UHGV virus genome: UHGV-1352853 | DNA from: a virus | DNA length: 64,000 bases | Reading direction: 5' to 3' (one strand) | Shown: piece after piece, positions 272 to 57,174 of the stretch | Position numbering within the stretch: position 1 is the stretch's first letter | Layout of the letters: each line of letters starts with the position of its first letter | Notes under the pieces: generated by a model | Database searches by the model: none | What the model was told of the DNA's origin: nothing | What the model saw: only the letters and a program-made list of their open reading frames with translations | Program-made: the position numbers and the translations under genes

Positions 272-2839
272 TTAGTTACCTTTCAGTTTATTTAGACGAT
301 TACGGTAGAGGGACTTAAACCCAGGAATATCCTCTGGATTCTTCTTGAGATGTTTAACTAAACTACCTAAGTCTAGGGTCTGTAGGATGTCGTCATGGTT
401 CCAGCCATAATTGAACAATTCTTTGTATTCATTAAGTACTCCGAAATACTTATGATTACGCGGATTAACCATCATTGTATACGGCTCTAAGTCATCAACT
501 GATTTAATGCAACCCATTTCAACAAGTTTTTCTTTGTTGTTATGCGGTCGATTTCTTAAGAAATCATACGCCCATTCATACTCTGGTTTAAAAATCAGAT
601 TCTGTAATGGTTTGAATGTTAGACCGAGAATATCAAGGATTTCCCAATACTCTCTGTCATCCAGTCCTACGTACTCAAGAATGCCAATACGGTATTCAGT
701 AACATACTTCTTGAATCCCTTACTGGTAATGACAGGCATCAATTCATTAAAGCGAACATCGTCAATGTGGATAGCACCACGTCGTTTGGCTTTGTTAGCT
801 TCGATTTGATTACGACATACAACAGTCTCTGCTTTCATCTCATCGGATAGCTCATACCATTTCCACATGGTGCCAATACTGGCAGTTACTGGACTACCAG
901 AACCAACTTGATTGGCTAACACGTAGTACTTAGGTTGTTCCACTTCAACGAAACCGTACTTCTCATGACGACTTGGGTCAGCAAATTCCTTCTGAATATA
1001 TGGTTTAGATAGCCAATCTCCACTTTTATCTCGTACAGGAGTAGTACCAAGAACTGCATTCAATGAAATTAGAGCATTAGTTTTACCTACTGCTTTGGTT
1101 TTATTGGCAGCTATTGTCTTAGCACGTCTCTCGGCAGCTATCTTAGCTTGCTCTCTGCGGAAGTTAGTTGGTTTGTCCCACTCATTATATTGAGTAAGGT
1201 CAATTACCCGATAACCCATAGCAGTGAACTTAGCTACAGCTTCTTCTGCTGCACCCTTCTTAGGTCCAACAACGTGAACAAAAGCTGTACGCTCCAGGTC
1301 ACCTCGGTTGTACTCAGGGAAATATGAGAAGGAATCTGCACAGTCAGATAAACGTCGTGTAACTACAACGTTCTTGGTGGTGAATATGCCAATACTCTGG
1401 TGGGAGTTATGGTAAATTCTAAAGTAGTCAGTAAGTTTACCTTTTACCAGGTCTACAGAGTTACCTTGGTTCATTATGTAACCAGACCACTTAATACCAG
1501 TAGCTTTTAAAGTAGCAAGCTGAGGTAAGTGCAGATGGCGATATACTAATTCCTGGAATGGGGAATATGTATTTTCCTCCCGGGTATCCTTAAGAGCACG
1601 CATAGCCTTACCATAGAGTTTCTTAAGACCTGCATATTCAGGACGAGCTAATAATGCTTTATTGGATAAGTTCCGCCAGTGCTTGATGTAATGCTTACGT
1701 TGTTTGGCCCACAAACTAGAAGACATATAGCGTTGAACAATAGGGTCTGTAACAGCAAGCAAGAAAGATGGATAGGTCCAGAAGCGAACAGATGCTTGAG
1801 AGGCGTATTCCTCAACCTGTTTAATAGCTTCAGGAATCTTAGCCTTAATCTCTTTCTCCATACGGTCTACTAAATCTACACATAGAGTAGTAATACCATC
1901 GTCAGTTAACTTCTGGTTAGACAGCGTTTCTCGACTAGGAGCAATAGCTAGAGTATCTGGTGCAGCTTGAACTACTAGATTGTCAGCACCAATAATGTTC
2001 ATAAAGTTGAGGATAAGACCTACAGCCTCTTCACTAGCTGGACTGGATACTATTGGGTATATTACGTTACCGTAACGAACAAAGATGTTACTGTTACCCA
2101 TGTAGCCCTGATACCAGCTATCAGACATATCATAAGAACCAGGCTCAAATGACATACCTAGTGTATCCAGCAGAATATAATCACCTTGTTTAATACTATT
2201 ACCATCGTCTGTTCTAACGAGTTTAGGAATGCTAAGTTCAGCTTTAATCTCACCATTAAACACAATAGACTTGATGTAATGTACAAAGGTATTCACATCA
2301 TGTTTGCCTAACTGGAATTTAACTTCCAAACCAGATTCCTCAGTAGGAATATTAGTAACAATAGGAACAATTCCGGGCTTACCATCATTCTCAATCGCAG
2401 CCTTAGCTACGTTATATACAGACATCTTTCCTTGGTTCCATGAAGTAACCTGGAAGCTATCTGTATAAGCGAATGGGGATTTACATCCCAGACCAAAACC
2501 ACCAGTAACACTACTGTTGGACTTCTTAGTAGATGCACCATAGACACCATAGATGGAACCAATGAGTTCATCGGGGATGCCGTTGCCGAAGTCACGGAAG
2601 GTAATAAAGTTGTCTGTATCAATAGTGATACGAATAGGAGTATCAGTCTTACCTGCTTCAATATGAGCATCCCAACTATTACAGATAGTCTCACGGACTA
2701 CTGCTAGAGTGGGATTGTTATATAAAGATGTACTTAATACATGGAAGAATGCCGGGTCATCAGAGATGCCAAAGGCAATTGTTTCTTTGCCACCCAGTGT
2801 CGCTGAGGTAGCTACTTCATTAGTATCTGCAACTAACAT
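272..2839 (-). CDS. rIIA: rIIA-like protein with N-terminal GHKL (HATPase_c) ATPase domain
   Basis: N-box E..NSWDA, G1 box DFGNGI, G2 box GGFGLGCKS near N-terminus; 855 aa; phage rIIA proteins carry this GHKL fold; position in early/middle block of an N4-like genome. Confidence 0.6.
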   Translation of the reverse strand: MLVADTNEVATSATLGGKETIAFGISDDPAFFHVLSTSLYNNPTLAVVRETICNSWDAHIEAGKTDTPIRITIDTDNFITFRDFGNGIPDELIGSIYGVYGASTKKSNSSVTGGFGLGCKSPFAYTDSFQVTSWNQGKMSVYNVAKAAIENDGKPGIVPIVTNIPTEESGLEVKFQLGKHDVNTFVHYIKSIVFNGEIKAELSIPKLVRTDDGNSIKQGDYILLDTLGMSFEPGSYDMSDSWYQGYMGNSNIFVRYGNVIYPIVSSPASEEAVGLILNFMNIIGADNLVVQAAPDTLAIAPSRETLSNQKLTDDGITTLCVDLVDRMEKEIKAKIPEAIKQVEEYASQASVRFWTYPSFLLAVTDPIVQRYMSSSLWAKQRKHYIKHWRNLSNKALLARPEYAGLKKLYGKAMRALKDTREENTYSPFQELVYRHLHLPQLATLKATGIKWSGYIMNQGNSVDLVKGKLTDYFRIYHNSHQSIGIFTTKNVVVTRRLSDCADSFSYFPEYNRGDLERTAFVHVVGPKKGAAEEAVAKFTAMGYRVIDLTQYNEWDKPTNFRREQAKIAAERRAKTIAANKTKAVGKTNALISLNAVLGTTPVRDKSGDWLSKPYIQKEFADPSRHEKYGFVEVEQPKYYVLANQVGSGSPVTASIGTMWKWYELSDEMKAETVVCRNQIEANKAKRRGAIHIDDVRFNELMPVITSKGFKKYVTEYRIGILEYVGLDDREYWEILDILGLTFKPLQNLIFKPEYEWAYDFLRNRPHNNKEKLVEMGCIKSVDDLEPYTMMVNPRNHKYFGVLNEYKELFNYGWNHDDILQTLDLGSLVKHLKKNPEDIPGFKSLYRNRLNKLKGN

Positions 2840-6311: not shown

Positions 6312-6818
6312 TTATTTACTGCTTCTTGCAGCTACGGGTTTGTTTTCCTGGTTCATATACTTGCCATTGTAATTAGCAGGTTCTTGAACCAGATGAAATA
6401 ATACTTGAGCTATCCCAGCACCAGCCGGGATATGCAGTTTCTTACGACCATGATAGACCAGTTCAAGGGTAAGATACCCTTTCCATCCTGGTTCTATTAC
6501 GGTATTGAACACTGATAATGCACGCCTTGCCCAGGTAGACTTATCGTGAACGATAGCTACACAAGATGGGGACATGTTGAACTTCTCAATTGCTGAGGCC
6601 AATGTGAACTTACCAAAATGTCGTGATACTTGCTTTCCATCAACGACCTTCACCATTGGAATCAACCCAAATAAGCGATAGAAGGTAATATCCTGTTTGA
6701 TGCGAATATCATAACCAGCTTCACCTAATCCATAGCTTACACCATGCTCGGATACCTTACGGTCAGGAACATCCAGCAACTGAGATGAGCGATATAGAGA
6801 ATTACCATTAACAACCAT
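6312..6818 (-). CDS. dCTP deaminase/dUTPase-fold protein
   Basis: GYDIR, SVFNTVIEPGWKGYLTLEL and IPAGAGIAQVLF motifs typical of the trimeric dUTPase/dCTP deaminase fold. Confidence 0.5.
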   Translation of the reverse strand: MVVNGNSLYRSSQLLDVPDRKVSEHGVSYGLGEAGYDIRIKQDITFYRLFGLIPMVKVVDGKQVSRHFGKFTLASAIEKFNMSPSCVAIVHDKSTWARRALSVFNTVIEPGWKGYLTLELVYHGRKKLHIPAGAGIAQVLFHLVQEPANYNGKYMNQENKPVAARSSK

Positions 6819-8074
6819 TATTTCATTCCTTTAGGGATATGAACTACCTCCCCAAAAGGTACGGTAGCATTGGGATTATTCAGAACACACCAGATGATAG
6901 GAATATCAAATGGCAATTCCTCCATTGGACGAACATACATATCGGAGAATATGATTGCAGCGGTTGGCTTATTCTTAATAATCCATTCGCGTACTGGTTC
7001 CAGATTTGTACCACCACGACCAGTAATCTTAATCTCTTCAAAAGTATCTTCTTCAGTGATGTCTATTTCTTCTTGGATAATATCGTCGAAGGTAATTAGG
7101 GACATCTTCTTAGGATTGAATTGGCTCTTGACGTAGGCAACCTCTGAGTTAAAACGCAGAGAGTCTGCACTACTAATAGAACCAGATACATCCTCAAAGT
7201 AGGCCAAGTGACGTAAACGTCCTTCATCATCTTCTAGAGAAGGTAGATAGATGTCAGTGTAACGACGGTTAGGTCTGGCCCACGTATAATGAGTATCATC
7301 AATGTCGGTAAAGAAGTTCATAAGGACTTCTTGCCATGGAACTACTGGTTTAAGGAATTGGGTAATAACCTCTTCTATACGACCAGCACCTTTACCTGGC
7401 ATTGTTCCACCAGCCATCTTCTGGCTTTGCATTGCACGTACTACGTTGTTGACGACAGCACCCTGGGACTGCCCCGGAGTGGGGGATTTCATGTCGCCAG
7501 CAAGACCTGCTCCAGCACCCCCTGACGGCTTCTGCCTTTTCTGAGGATTCTTCATCAGGTCATCGTAGATGTCTTCTTCGACCCATCCTTTATATTGTGG
7601 GTCTTTGCAAATACCTTTGTCGATACCAGTGAACTTGTAACCATCTTCTTCTAACTGAAGGTTAATGAAATGGTCACATGCCTGGTTCCAGACTTCCAGG
7701 TCACGGCTTCCACGACGGATGTCATGCAAATATGCTACATGCCAGAGTTCGTGCATTAACACTGTTTCTCTTGCATCTGGACACATCCATATAAAGAAAT
7801 CTGGATTGAAATGAAGTTCTATCCCATCAGTACATGCAGTGGGACAATCCTCACGTTTCCATGAGAATTTAAGACTACACAGTAATGAACCAAAGAACGC
7901 TGCACTGCGTCCTAGGAAAGCCTTAGCTTGAATACGATCATATTCGCGCATTAGTTGTTCATCACTAAGGGAGTGCTGAGGAAATTGGTTCATTGTTTTA
8001 TCCGTGAATGTAACGAGAGATGTTAGCAGCAGCCTTACGCCATTCAGGGGTAGCCTGAAGATCTGGTAATGCAT
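6818..8074 (-). CDS. VWA-like domain protein with N-terminal HExxH metallopeptidase-like motif (DUF2201-type MoxR partner)
   Basis: HELWHVAYLHD zinc-binding motif; glycine-rich linker; C-terminal half consistent with VWA-like domain; immediately downstream of MoxR-type AAA+ gene as in MoxR-VWA pairs. Confidence 0.5.
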   Translation of the reverse strand: MHYQIFRLPLNGVRLLLTSLVTFTDKTMNQFPQHSLSDEQLMREYDRIQAKAFLGRSAAFFGSLLCSLKFSWKREDCPTACTDGIELHFNPDFFIWMCPDARETVLMHELWHVAYLHDIRRGSRDLEVWNQACDHFINLQLEEDGYKFTGIDKGICKDPQYKGWVEEDIYDDLMKNPQKRQKPSGGAGAGLAGDMKSPTPGQSQGAVVNNVVRAMQSQKMAGGTMPGKGAGRIEEVITQFLKPVVPWQEVLMNFFTDIDDTHYTWARPNRRYTDIYLPSLEDDEGRLRHLAYFEDVSGSISSADSLRFNSEVAYVKSQFNPKKMSLITFDDIIQEEIDITEEDTFEEIKITGRGGTNLEPVREWIIKNKPTAAIIFSDMYVRPMEELPFDIPIIWCVLNNPNATVPFGEVVHIPKGMK

Positions 8075-8736
8075 TGCCTACTGTACGGAAGTACAGAATC
8101 TTATGGGTGAACGTTTTAAATCGTTCAATGTACTGAAGAACATCAGTGAAGTTTTCTTCAGTAGTTTTGTTAGCCAGATGGTTAACGGTAGCCCAACACA
8201 GGTTGTTATCTTCAGGTAGTGCACAGCCCAAAGGGTCTTTTACTACCTTCTCAATCGTAATCATACGATTGTATACCTGAGTAAACTGAACAAATTCTGT
8301 AGCCTTACCAGCAGTAACGTGGCCTGCATAGTAGATAGAATCTTCATCAGGCAGAGCACCTTCAGGACGGTTCTTGAGGTCTTTGTTAACAAAGTCCCAA
8401 GTACGAGGGCAGCAGAACGTTTTGTTCTTATGGGCTGGGTCAAAGTCATGCAGATAACCAGGGTTAGCATGTAGGAATGCAACCAGACGTTCATCCCATT
8501 CTTGCGGAATCATTACATCTTCAACAAAGATGTCGAAGTTAAGTTCCATTTCGAAGTGGACAACACGAGACTGCATTGCAGTACCCAGTGGGTTAACAAT
8601 TGCACGGTCAGTAGCTTTGTTACCTGCACAGATAATCATCACATTAGGATGAAGTTTTTTCTGACCAGTCATACGGTCTAGAATCAGTTTGTATGCAGCA
8701 GCTACTACTTCTTTTCTGGCTGAGTTGAACTCATCG
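7998..8736 (-). CDS. MoxR-like AAA+ ATPase, exon 2 (C-terminal part; frame open upstream of annotated Met to 8736)
   Basis: upstream in-frame extension encodes DEFNSARKEVVAAAYKLILDR (Walker B DE + sensor region) then VMIICAGN (sensor 1) and LGTAMQSRVVH; stop TAA at 8739-8741 lies in proposed intron. Confidence 0.6.
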
Positions 8737-9618
8737 CATTATCTTCACATTAGTTCGCAACTACTAATGCCGTCAGTACACTCAGTGAATACTGACTGCT
8801 GCATGTCACCATGCAGAGGAGACTATATCAAAGCCCTATTACTAGGGCTGTTACCGTTTCGAGTGCCATTAGCTTGCACCCTACTCTACTCACTTCCACA
8901 TTTCTGTGTGTTTTCGATAGTCGTTTGGCATTTAAATGAAATTGGTACTGTACCCAATCTGTGTAAGATTGTTGTTAGTTACGTAGGAGTCATAGGCTTT
9001 GGCAGCCTCTTCCTCTGTTTTGTAACGTCCCAAACCAATAGATTTCTTGTTAACCCTTATATGGGCACACCATCTTTGTCTTTGCTCACTCCAGGATACA
9101 CCTACGTATTTGGAGGAGCCTCCACGATTTTTGTTACTAGCGTTGGCATGTCTGTTCGACAACAATCCAGTATCCCAAGCATGTTTAATATTTTGGGACT
9201 GGGTACACCATTCCAGGTTACTCTCGTGATTATTAAGAGGGTTTCCATCTATATGATTAATAACAGGATAGTTATTAGGGTTTGGTACAAAGGCTATCCC
9301 TACTAAACGGTGAACTTGGTATTTGTACACTTTACTATTCATGTACAGGTTCACGCAGTAGTACCCTTTGTTATTAAGATACGGTTTTATATGTGTCCTA
9401 TTTTTGTATTTATACTTTCCTTCTTTTCGGCGTACTACACCAAAGTTGGAAACTTCATACGGTAAGTCAGGCACATCTTTCCAAACTTCATTATTTAGCA
9501 CAGGATTGTCTCCAATTGATTAAAACTCAAGTATACACCTGAGCCAACCATATTAGAAGAGGTTCCCTGTTTAGGTAACTTTCGACATGAGATTGCTCTC
9601 ATGAAGCCCCGTTAGTTA
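8737..9618 (-). mobile_element. putative group I intron (882 nt) carrying an HNH homing endonuclease ORF, inserted in the Walker B codons of the MoxR-like ATPase gene
   Basis: 5' exon ends in U (9619), intron ends in G (8737); R-like AAACGACUAUCG (8926..8915) pairs GACUA with S-like UUGAUAUAGUC (8831..8821) to form P7; P8 hairpin AGCCCUAGUAAUAGGGCU (8849..8832); P9 hairpin CUGCAUGGUGACAUGCAG (8815..8798); further 3' hairpins; splicing yields LLFL|DEFNSA in frame. Confidence 0.6.
8932..9501 (-). CDS. HNH homing endonuclease (NUMOD4-HNH_3-AP2 architecture), intron-encoded
   Basis: EVWKDVP...YEVSNFGVVRR (NUMOD4), HRLVGIAFVPNP..INHIDGNPLNNHESNLEWCTQSQN (HNH), KYVGVSWSEQRQRWCAHIRVNKKSIGLGRYKTEEEAAKAYD (AP2); GTG start. 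Confidence 0.8.
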   Translation of the reverse strand: MLNNEVWKDVPDLPYEVSNFGVVRRKEGKYKYKNRTHIKPYLNNKGYYCVNLYMNSKVYKYQVHRLVGIAFVPNPNNYPVINHIDGNPLNNHESNLEWCTQSQNIKHAWDTGLLSNRHANASNKNRGGSSKYVGVSWSEQRQRWCAHIRVNKKSIGLGRYKTEEEAAKAYDSYVTNNNLTQIGYSTNFI

Positions 9619-9932
9619 AGGAATAGGAGCCATCCATTATATCCTTCCGGTATTTCATCCCCCTCAATAGGGAATAAGTCAGCGAATGGGATAAACTCTG
9701 CACGGTCACCATTACGGAATGGTAAACCAGATAAGTCTTCCGGGGCAGAAGTAGACAGACGATGGTCTATCAGCTTCATACCAAATTCTTTTGCAACAGA
9801 ACGAATAATTGCAGATTTACCCATCCCCGGTGATGAAGTCAGGAACGGTACGTTACCTGCTTGCAAGGCACGGATAATAAAGTTACGGGCCTGACGTGTA
9901 TTACATACGGTCAGTGAGTCAATGCTCGCCAT
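9619..9932 (-). CDS. MoxR-like AAA+ ATPase, exon 1 (N-terminal part with Walker A)
   Basis: Walker A SSPGMGKSAI; ends ...GWLLFL immediately before where Walker B DE is expected; ORF track stop (LLFLN*) lies in proposed intron. Confidence 0.6.
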
Positions 9933-17319: not shown

Positions 17320-17775
17320 CTATTTTCCGTGGTTTGGATGAAATCCATATAAATTCTCTGCGTCTAGACGAGCAGCCACAGCATCAGTTAACTCCTTAAA
17401 GTAACCTAGATGCTTTCTCTTACCCTTTACGGAAATGAACACTTGCCATTTATTGGAAGTTTTATTCCAACGTACACCAGTATGCCCTGACTTATTGTTA
17501 GCATACTTAGTAGAGTTCATTAGATTGGTTTGTCTGTCTACTAATCTAAGATTCTCAATTCTGTTATCAAGGCGGTTATGCCATATGTGGTCTATTTGCA
17601 TATCTTTGGGGATTGTTCCATAGTGCATTTCCCAAATTACCCTATGCTCACAATATTTAACCCCTTTAACATGAACAAAACGATAACCACTTGGGTGTAC
17701 AGTTCCAGCTCTCTTACCATTTTTAATATGGTATAGTTTTCCGGATTCATATCTGAATATACTATTCCAATCCAT
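17320..17775 (-). CDS. HNH homing endonuclease (HNH_3 + AP2), free-standing
   Basis: HRVIWEMHYGTIP...IDHIWHNRLDNRIENLRLVDRQTN (HNH) and SGHTGVRWNKTSNKWQVFISVKGKRKHLGYF (AP2). Confidence 0.8.
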   Translation of the reverse strand: MDWNSIFRYESGKLYHIKNGKRAGTVHPSGYRFVHVKGVKYCEHRVIWEMHYGTIPKDMQIDHIWHNRLDNRIENLRLVDRQTNLMNSTKYANNKSGHTGVRWNKTSNKWQVFISVKGKRKHLGYFKELTDAVAARLDAENLYGFHPNHGK

Positions 17776-57016: not shown

Positions 57017-57092
57017 GGTGTCCACTACTGGATTTGAACCAGTGACTTTCCGATTATTAGTCAGTTGCTTTCCCCGTCTAAGCTAAGTGGAC
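57017..57092 (-). tRNA. tRNA (canonical cloverleaf; anticodon loop CUAAUAA, anticodon AAU read as Ile, uncertain)
   Basis: acceptor GTCCACT/AGTGGAC, D-stem GCTT/AAGC, T-arm ACTGG-TTCAAAT-CCAGT, U33 and A37 in place; anticodon stem has one mismatch. Confidence 0.6.
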
Positions 57093-57098
57093 TTATTA

Positions 57099-57174
57099 TG
57101 GTTACCCAGGCAGGATTCGAACCTGCGTCCTAGTTGGTTTACTAGTGGGGCTTTTCCACTAAGCCTACTGGGTA
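57099..57174 (-). tRNA. tRNA (76 nt, encoded CCA; anticodon arm non-canonical, 6- or 8-nt loop)
   Basis: acceptor TACCCAG/CTGGGTA, D-stem GGCT/AGCC, T-arm GCAGG-TTCGAAT-CCTGC, CCA; anticodon region CTAGT-AAACCA-ACTAG does not give 7-nt loop. Confidence 0.55.

Follow-up and report, generated by a model that had tools for sequence, protein, structure and literature searches.

How does a phage ATPase gene come to lie in two pieces, with a gene for an HNH endonuclease lodged between them? The question is raised by one locus of the UHGV virus genome UHGV-1352853, of which a stretch of 64,000 nucleotides (nt), hereafter the window, was analysed. The phage is a Gamaleyavirus, a coliphage of the Schitoviridae, and N4-like, as an earlier note on the sequence had also held; the region is 94–95% identical to phages NAN33P5 and U1G, and another 24-kb stretch of the window has its best record match at 97% over 76% of its length. 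Three open reading frames (ORFs) follow one another on the minus strand: a first one at 9932..9612 (106 amino acids, aa), with a P-loop (SSPGMGKS) and a C-terminus reading GWLLFLN before the stop; a second one at 9501..8932 (189 aa), which sits between the two ATPase ORFs; and a third one at 8672..7998 (224 aa), whose frame is open upstream as far as 8738 and reads CDEFNSARKEV there. According to our sequence comparisons, the DNA that separates the two ATPase ORFs is very probably a functional group I intron of the T4 td type, with an IA-type layout, for which splicing is predicted.

The 882-nt insertion has exact limits, and its removal restores the ORF. In an alignment with phage CU10EC, whose gene is uninterrupted (L001, coding sequence of 1053 nt), the window carries the additional DNA at 9618..8737 (-), and joining 9619 to 8736 yields an ORF of 1053 nt and 350 aa, equal in length to the CU10EC gene and with LLFL-DEFN spanning its Walker B motif. 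The outer ORFs are thus the two halves of one ATPase cut at Walker B, which is what the earlier note had proposed, with coordinates and motifs that prove correct. Over its full length (100%), the spliced 350-aa product shares 99% identity with an uninterrupted protein cluster that counts 685 member sequences, and it matches phrog_1297 (“ATPase”) from end to end (7e-134), while the Pfam AAA cut-off is reached by the joined protein only (29.4 bits over residues 31–146, vs. 18.9 bits for exon 1 alone). Of its 1770 homologues, the best 120 consist almost entirely of single polypeptides 345–355 aa long, a few shortened entries aside.

Among 60 matching phage records, the insertion is whole in three, two of which are both records of U1G, and the remaining ones cover 56–58% of the region, split in two pieces; the intron can be present or absent among phages with exon flanks more than 90% identical. 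Where it is found in U1G (95.6% identity) and NAN33P5 (98.2%), which were sequenced independently, it occupies the identical base. Moreover, a public cluster of 27 members (P0021) matches the exon-2 ORF left by this Walker B-site intron. The shared insertion site and the cluster leave a close to negligible probability to an assembly artefact or chimera joining unrelated DNA within the gene, in favour of which we found nothing specific. Two other kinds of insert were considered and ruled out: an insertion sequence or transposon (neither a target-site duplication nor a transposase) and an intein (the host frame is not carried through the insert, a UAA following after two codons).

The non-coding parts of the insertion resemble those of the T4 td intron on both sides of the endonuclease ORF. 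In the alignment, the 5' part shares with T4 td the segments CUAAAC.GGGAACCUC...GACAAUCC.GUGCUAAAU, and the 3' part shares AAAUGCC.AACGACUAUC, GAUAUAGUCU, the P9 hairpin CUGCAUGGUGACAUGCAG and the end ...AUAAUG. Splicing of the T4 td intron has been proven experimentally, and its RefSeq record names it a “group 1A intron”. The resemblance extends to unrelated phages, the 3' core being 72–79% identical to introns located in td genes (Proteus phage phiP4-3, Dickeya phage JA29 and the phiKZ-like phage SL2), a portal gene (Vibrio phage F100), large terminase genes (KIL1 and FKP3) and a DNA polymerase gene (18-1-2). When seven introns from other phage groups were made into a profile, every Gamaleyavirus sequence being excluded, a search of the window returned two matches alone, at 8932..8796 (E 2.5e-31) and 9597..9493 (E 1.3e-7), which chance cannot account for. 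Furthermore, 62 columns are invariant among ten aligned introns, T4 td included, and the window intron conforms to every one of them. By itself, the 9-mer GATATAGTC is not significant, with 10 matches in the window at one mismatch or fewer for 16 expected.

The secondary structure was studied on the same ten introns, aligned with MAFFT after removal of their ORFs. RNAalifold, run without any given structure, predicts P2, the long-range P3, P4, P5, P7.1, P7.2, P8, P9 and P9.2, with compensatory changes in 41 of 54 pairs. When the td-like structure is written out in full (i.e., with P6 and the P7 pseudoknot added), 92.7% of the cells are in standard pairs across the ten introns, against 33–44% in controls in which the 3' partners were slid by one to three columns; compensatory changes affect 46 of its 62 pairs, and the observed values were not equalled in any of 500 shuffles. 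In P3, all cells are paired (100%) and five of the six pairs are compensatory; P7 is likewise 100% paired but invariant, and hence gives no covariation information either way. The window intron without its ORF, folded alone by minimum free energy (MFE), forms the same helices, along with P6a, the extended P5 and P9.1 (z = -5.06). In our reading of the sequences, stems equivalent to P6a differ in sequence and keep their pairing in T4 td, PW8, the second intron of NAN33P5, phiP4-3 and JA29.

The helices follow each other in the order P7, P7.1, P7.2, P3', P8, P7', which is the IA-type layout, and include the core elements that the earlier note had picked out: ACGACUAUC pairs with GAUAUAGUC, its 3' partner segment, to form P7, the P8 hairpin lies directly 5' of GAUAUAGUC, and P9 is present together with P9.1 and P9.2. 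By homology, P7 would be the guanosine-binding helix. The coordinates of these features are collected below.

Features of the interrupted ATPase gene in the window, from 5' to 3' on the minus strand, followed by the downstream gene and by related introns of other phages (positions in their own sequences).
Feature	Position	Strand	Remarks
ATPase exon 1	9619..9932	-	codons 1-104 and first two bases of Leu105; Walker A GMGKS; last base U9619; from ORF list and alignment to CU10EC
Very probable group I intron, T4 td type, 882 nt	8737..9618	-	starts UAACUAAC, ends ...GAUAAUG; terminal G 8737
P1 guide sequence GGGG (3' strand of P1)	9607..9610	-	intron positions 9-12; pairs with exon end UCCU
P2 hairpin CAUGAGA-GCAA-UCUCAUG	9586..9603	-	RNAalifold, MFE; 6/6 tested pairs compensatory
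P3 5' strand GUUACC	9574..9579	-	partner 8855..8850, about 720 nt downstream; MFE recovers the pairing
P4 (ACAGGG/UCCUGU) and P5 (UCUUC/GGAGA)	9500..9570	-	extended P5 hairpin 9543..9526, lineage-specific
Endonuclease ORF, 189 aa, in P6a loop	8932..9501	-	Pfam NUMOD4 1.5e-9, HNH_3 3.8e-8, AP2 4.6e-10, all above cut-offs
P6a 5' strand AAUGAAGUU	9484..9492	-	partner 8943..8935 (AAUUUCAUU); closes the ORF-holding loop; MFE
P7 5' strand GACUAU, inside ACGACUAUC	8917..8922	-	partner 8826..8821 (AUAGUC); pseudoknot with P3; identical to T4 td
P7.1 and P7.2	8910..8897 and 8881..8861	-	extra hairpins between P7 and P3'; IA-type mark
P3 3' strand GGUAAC	8850..8855	-	RNAalifold, pair counts, MFE
P8 hairpin AGCCCUA-GUAA-UAGGGCU	8832..8849	-	6/7 pairs compensatory
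P9 (CUGCAUGGUGACAUGCAG, T4 td hairpin)	8816..8799	-	P9.1 8796..8772; P9.2 8769..8748
ATPase exon 2	7998..8736	-	third base of Leu105, Asp106-Glu107 of Walker B, on to stop
Downstream partner gene	6818..7996	-	DUF2201_N metallopeptidase (Pfam 2.4e-55) and DUF2201 VWA-like domain (2.8e-34)
Related intron, NAN33P5 (L003)	1898..2763
Related intron, PW8 (L004)	about 557..1429
Related intron, pSb-1 (L006)
Related intron, phi 1 (L005)

A complete td-like ribozyme, supported by covariation, is what the 312 non-coding nt around the endonuclease ORF amount to, and it argues against the idea that a free-standing HNH gene, or some other mobile cassette, was inserted without a ribozyme. Free-standing HNH genes are frequent in this phage group, the window itself apparently having one at 17775..17320; nevertheless, on reading the sequence we see neither a target-site duplication nor inverted repeats at the ends of the insert, and such a cassette is hardly conceivable here.

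Within the lineage, when the window is compared with U1G and NAN33P5, the changes in the ribozyme sit in the loops of P1, P2, P7.1, P7.2 and P8 (the three GNRA loops remaining GNRA), in the unpaired P6–P6a stretch and at a mismatch of the P5 extension, while the last two turn one P7.1 pair from A-U to G-C and compensate each other. Taken with the state of the endonuclease, this is the pattern expected for a working ribozyme and a working protein.

That endonuclease had been described in the earlier note as a NUMOD4-HNH-AP2 protein encoded within the 882-nt segment, and all three Pfam domains are recovered. It also matches PHROGs HNH families, and its residues 7–120 align to I-HmuI (PDB 1U3E; E 1.8e-12). 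Its ORF is without internal stop in all three isolates (window, U1G and NAN33P5), and between the window and U1G 29 codons differ, for eight differing residues; judged from these sequences, the endonuclease is intact and under purifying selection. Its GUG start at 9501 overlaps the 3' strand of P4 and P6, and its likely Shine-Dalgarno sequence, GGAG, is the 3' strand of P5; in the PW8/pSb-1 intron, an AUG stands at the position equal to this GUG. A scan for sigma-70 promoters and terminators returned none on the minus strand within the intron, and the endonuclease would, because of this, probably be read from the pre-mRNA. Elsewhere in the window, the ORF at 17320..17775 (-) encodes a 151-aa protein that combines an HNH motif with a C-terminal part resembling AP2 and shares 27% identity with the intron endonuclease; this gene seems to be free-standing, the intron-core profiles having no match nearby.

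The splice sites suggested in the earlier note (9619|8736) stand: the last base of the 5' exon (9619) is U, the last base of the intron (8737) is G, and LLFL-DEF is restored in frame. The predicted junction of the ligated exons is ...CUAUUCCU|CGAUGAGUUC... (in RNA, UUCCU|CGAUGAG), where the intron-less CU10EC allele reads ...CTGTTCCTTGACGAATTC..., and an in-frame UAA stop lies two codons inside the intron. The pairing of UCCU with GGGG places a U-G wobble at the 5' splice site, and the guide sequence varies in step with the exon across seven introns at five insertion sites: exon end UCGU and guide GCGA in the second intron of NAN33P5, CUUGGGU and GCCUGAG in T4 td, GCGU and GCGC in the td introns of phiP4-3 and SL2, ACGU and GCGU in the KIL1 terminase intron. 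A G closes the intron in all homologues inspected. The choice of splice sites rests on this terminal-G rule and on homology; the junction 9618|8735, which also restores the ORF and matches the intron-less exons exactly, was rejected, for it would leave C as the last intron base, unlike in all homologues.

Several observations nonetheless weigh against a functional intron with these limits. P1 is short, with four pairs of which two are wobbles, and no P10 pairing between the start of the 3' exon (CGAUG) and the P1 loop was found on reading the sequence. The start codon and the likely ribosome-binding site of the endonuclease lie inside P4/P5/P6, and translation and folding could interfere. At position 8736, the first base of the 3' exon (+1), C is found in each of the three alleles with the intron (CUC, Leu), whereas all close intron-less alleles have U (CUU), because of which the insertion can be drawn one base rightward at the DNA level; the C may be a mark of co-conversion or a protection against the endonuclease. 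Distant intron-less homologues (L023–L025) already read TTCCTCGATGAG at the start of exon 2.

Finally, the Rfam search that the earlier note had named as a check does match Intron_gpI (RF00028), but below threshold, with 21.7 bits (E 0.015) for a threshold of 50. At face value, this would count against a group I intron, yet the test is a poor one: in the identical test, T4 td (40.3 bits) and T4 nrdB (35.7 bits) fall under the threshold too, while the ORF-less introns of KIL1 (94.7 bits) and SL2 (69.9 bits) exceed it. The low score is attributable to the 570-nt ORF and the P5 extension, not to the lack of an intron, and since RF00028 misses textbook ORF-bearing phage introns, the lack of an Rfam hit is no ground for rejecting such candidates. 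At gathering scores, the Rfam scan of the whole window yields two tRNAs only, whose neighbouring genes lie at 57019..57092 and 57102..57174 (-). As for KIL1 (L012), it has a second Rfam match at 2562-2784; together with 18-1-2 (L013) and FKP3 (L014), it carries two introns of the td-type family in or beside one gene, both being in the DNA polymerase gene in 18-1-2 and both in the terminase gene in FKP3.

The short P1 and the lack of a visible P10 are also what one might expect of a relic unable to splice, or of a split gene, in which case the ATPase would either be made of two reassembling polypeptides (106 aa and about 224 aa) or be lost. An AUG (Met127) indeed opens the ORF 8672..7998, and RefSeq gives U1G two “ATPase” coding sequences. 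However, Met127 has no Shine-Dalgarno sequence in front of it and, as a start, would give a fragment without Walker B, and the cut separates the P-loop from the Walker B Asp-Glu of one and the same AAA+ fold, whereas the homologues are, with the few truncated entries mentioned above, one polypeptide. On the RNA side, a dead ribozyme is at odds with the preservation in the window of all the columns invariant across the ten introns, and with substitutions which, among three independent isolates, spare the helices or compensate within them. We thus regard a relic or a split gene as decidedly improbable and retain a functional td-type intron as our reading of the locus.

By analogy, we infer for this intron catalysis, the order of its steps, the activity and target of the endonuclease, and homing, as follows. 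The gene would be transcribed, by homology to td, as a single pre-mRNA, in which the intron would fold into P1–P9.2 with the P3/P7 pseudoknot. A free guanosine at P7 would attack after U9619, held by its U-G wobble against GGGG; the terminal G8737 would occupy the guanosine site, the freed 5' exon would attack after G8737, and ligation of ...UUCCU to CGAUGAG... would restore the 350-aa ORF. Ribosomes on unspliced RNA would halt at the UAA, two codons into the intron. In mixed infections, alleles lacking the intron would be nicked or cut by the endonuclease and would acquire the intron through repair; we propose that the patchy distribution of the intron among near-identical phages is due to such homing.

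Compared with T4 td and its endonuclease I-TevI, the window intron belongs to the same ribozyme family, with the same helix order including P7.1/P7.2, the ORF in the P6a loop and an in-frame stop shortly inside the intron. The two differ in their host gene (an AAA+ ATPase here, thymidylate synthase in td), in their endonuclease (HNH, I-HmuI-like and with AP2, vs. GIY-YIG in td) and in several structural details: in the window intron, P5 is extended, P7.1 is larger, P9.1 is longer, P1 has four pairs instead of seven, and the start of the ORF overlaps the ribozyme core. I-HmuI is itself encoded within a group I intron of Bacillus phage SPO1, in the DNA polymerase gene, and shares with our endonuclease a NUMOD4-like N-terminal region and the HNH catalytic motif, whereas the C-terminal DNA-binding part of the latter is an AP2 domain. 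The window intron is a further example of a well-known type of element, T4 td-like, and not a new kind.

Introns related to it occur elsewhere in the same ATPase gene. In PW8 and pSb-1, a related intron follows ...PEDL, near residue 67 of the ATPase, and Vibrio phage phi 1 has a split ATPase whose related 3' intron core lies at most a few codons away from there, the endonuclease being 44% identical to that of the window. NAN33P5 has, in addition to the Walker B-site intron, a second one at FCCPR|TWDF, hence two introns in one gene, and a public cluster of 66 members (P0024) contains exon fragments for this third site. The PW8/pSb-1 introns and the second intron of NAN33P5 belong to the same ribozyme family and have a NUMOD4-HNH-AP2 endonuclease with its ORF in P6a, but their sites and guide sequences differ from those of the window intron, and the endonucleases at the three Gamaleyavirus ATPase sites are only 34–38% identical to each other. 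Two PHROGs families, phrog_21479 (68 aa) and phrog_16335, resemble sets of exon fragments of an intron-split ATPase; residues 1–67 of the spliced ATPase match the former.

Interrupted genes had been noticed before in N4-like phages. In Vibrio N4-like phages, HNH genes splitting the homologues of N4 gp24 (in JA1 and VchO139-I), of the DNA polymerase and of gp43 were described in 2013, and introns were suggested (PMC3670811). From the notes to JA1_0033 and JA1_0035, we infer that N4 gp24 is the ATPase of the window; in these Vibrio phages, the insertion lies near residue 67 and not at Walker B, and PMC3670811 gives no ribozyme structure. For another N4-like phage, there is a published report of a group I intron within td (PMC5746245), and in one of the GenBank records of U1G the endonuclease bears the label “Phage intron”. 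Our searches of the literature on Gamaleyavirus, Schitoviridae or U1G introns yielded no description of the window intron or of its structure. The earlier note had called the host gene unusual: it is indeed an accessory AAA+ ATPase, but in the light of the gp24 splits and of the U1G label it appears less unusual than supposed.

The same note had classified the ATPase as MoxR-type, a label which stands in part. NorQ and CbbQ are MoxR-class AAA+ proteins acting with VWA partners, and they are the best Foldseek matches in the PDB for an AlphaFold2 model of the spliced ATPase (30 homologues; predicted local distance difference test, pLDDT, of 84), with a template modelling (TM) score of about 0.6 on the target. 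At the sequence level, Pfam AAA_5 stays under its cut-off (17.4 bits for 22), the generic AAA family alone passing, and searches of PDB sequences, whether by the spliced ATPase itself or by a six-sequence profile, returned only the AAA modules of midasin and no MoxR protein. The fold of the model and the gene context, i.e., the VWA-like partner encoded downstream, therefore support a MoxR-like ATPase without a family-level sequence match. In U1G (L002 2311..2704) and phi 1 (L005 gp054), the gene 3' of the ATPase is named “HNH endonuclease” in RefSeq; the phi 1 record itself calls gp054 “similar to metallopeptidase domain protein”, and the equivalent in the window is the DUF2201 metallopeptidase/VWA protein. 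Both RefSeq labels are probably wrong.

Could the intron be more than a passenger in this gene? We deem it unlikely, whether as a switch between ribozyme and endonuclease or, separately, through related introns having moved within the gene. Were there a switch, translation of the endonuclease and folding of the ribozyme would be mutually exclusive, since the GUG and the likely Shine-Dalgarno sequence are built from strands of P4, P5 and P6, and the switch would couple production of the ATPase to expression of the endonuclease. Were there movement, it would be recorded in the presence of three related introns within a gene of 1 kb; reverse splicing, rather than endonuclease-driven homing, would fit, because the exon end CCU and the guide GGG recur at two of the sites.

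What is known of group I introns is left unchanged by the window intron. For this phage family, td-type introns with HNH-AP2 endonucleases would target an accessory MoxR-like ATPase at at least three sites, and the site at Walker B fits the habit of homing elements of settling in the most conserved codons. Pipelines call the gene as two “ATPase” fragments and an HNH gene, as in the RefSeq version of U1G; once the intron is recognised, a conserved core gene of N4-like phages, encoding 350 aa, is recovered.

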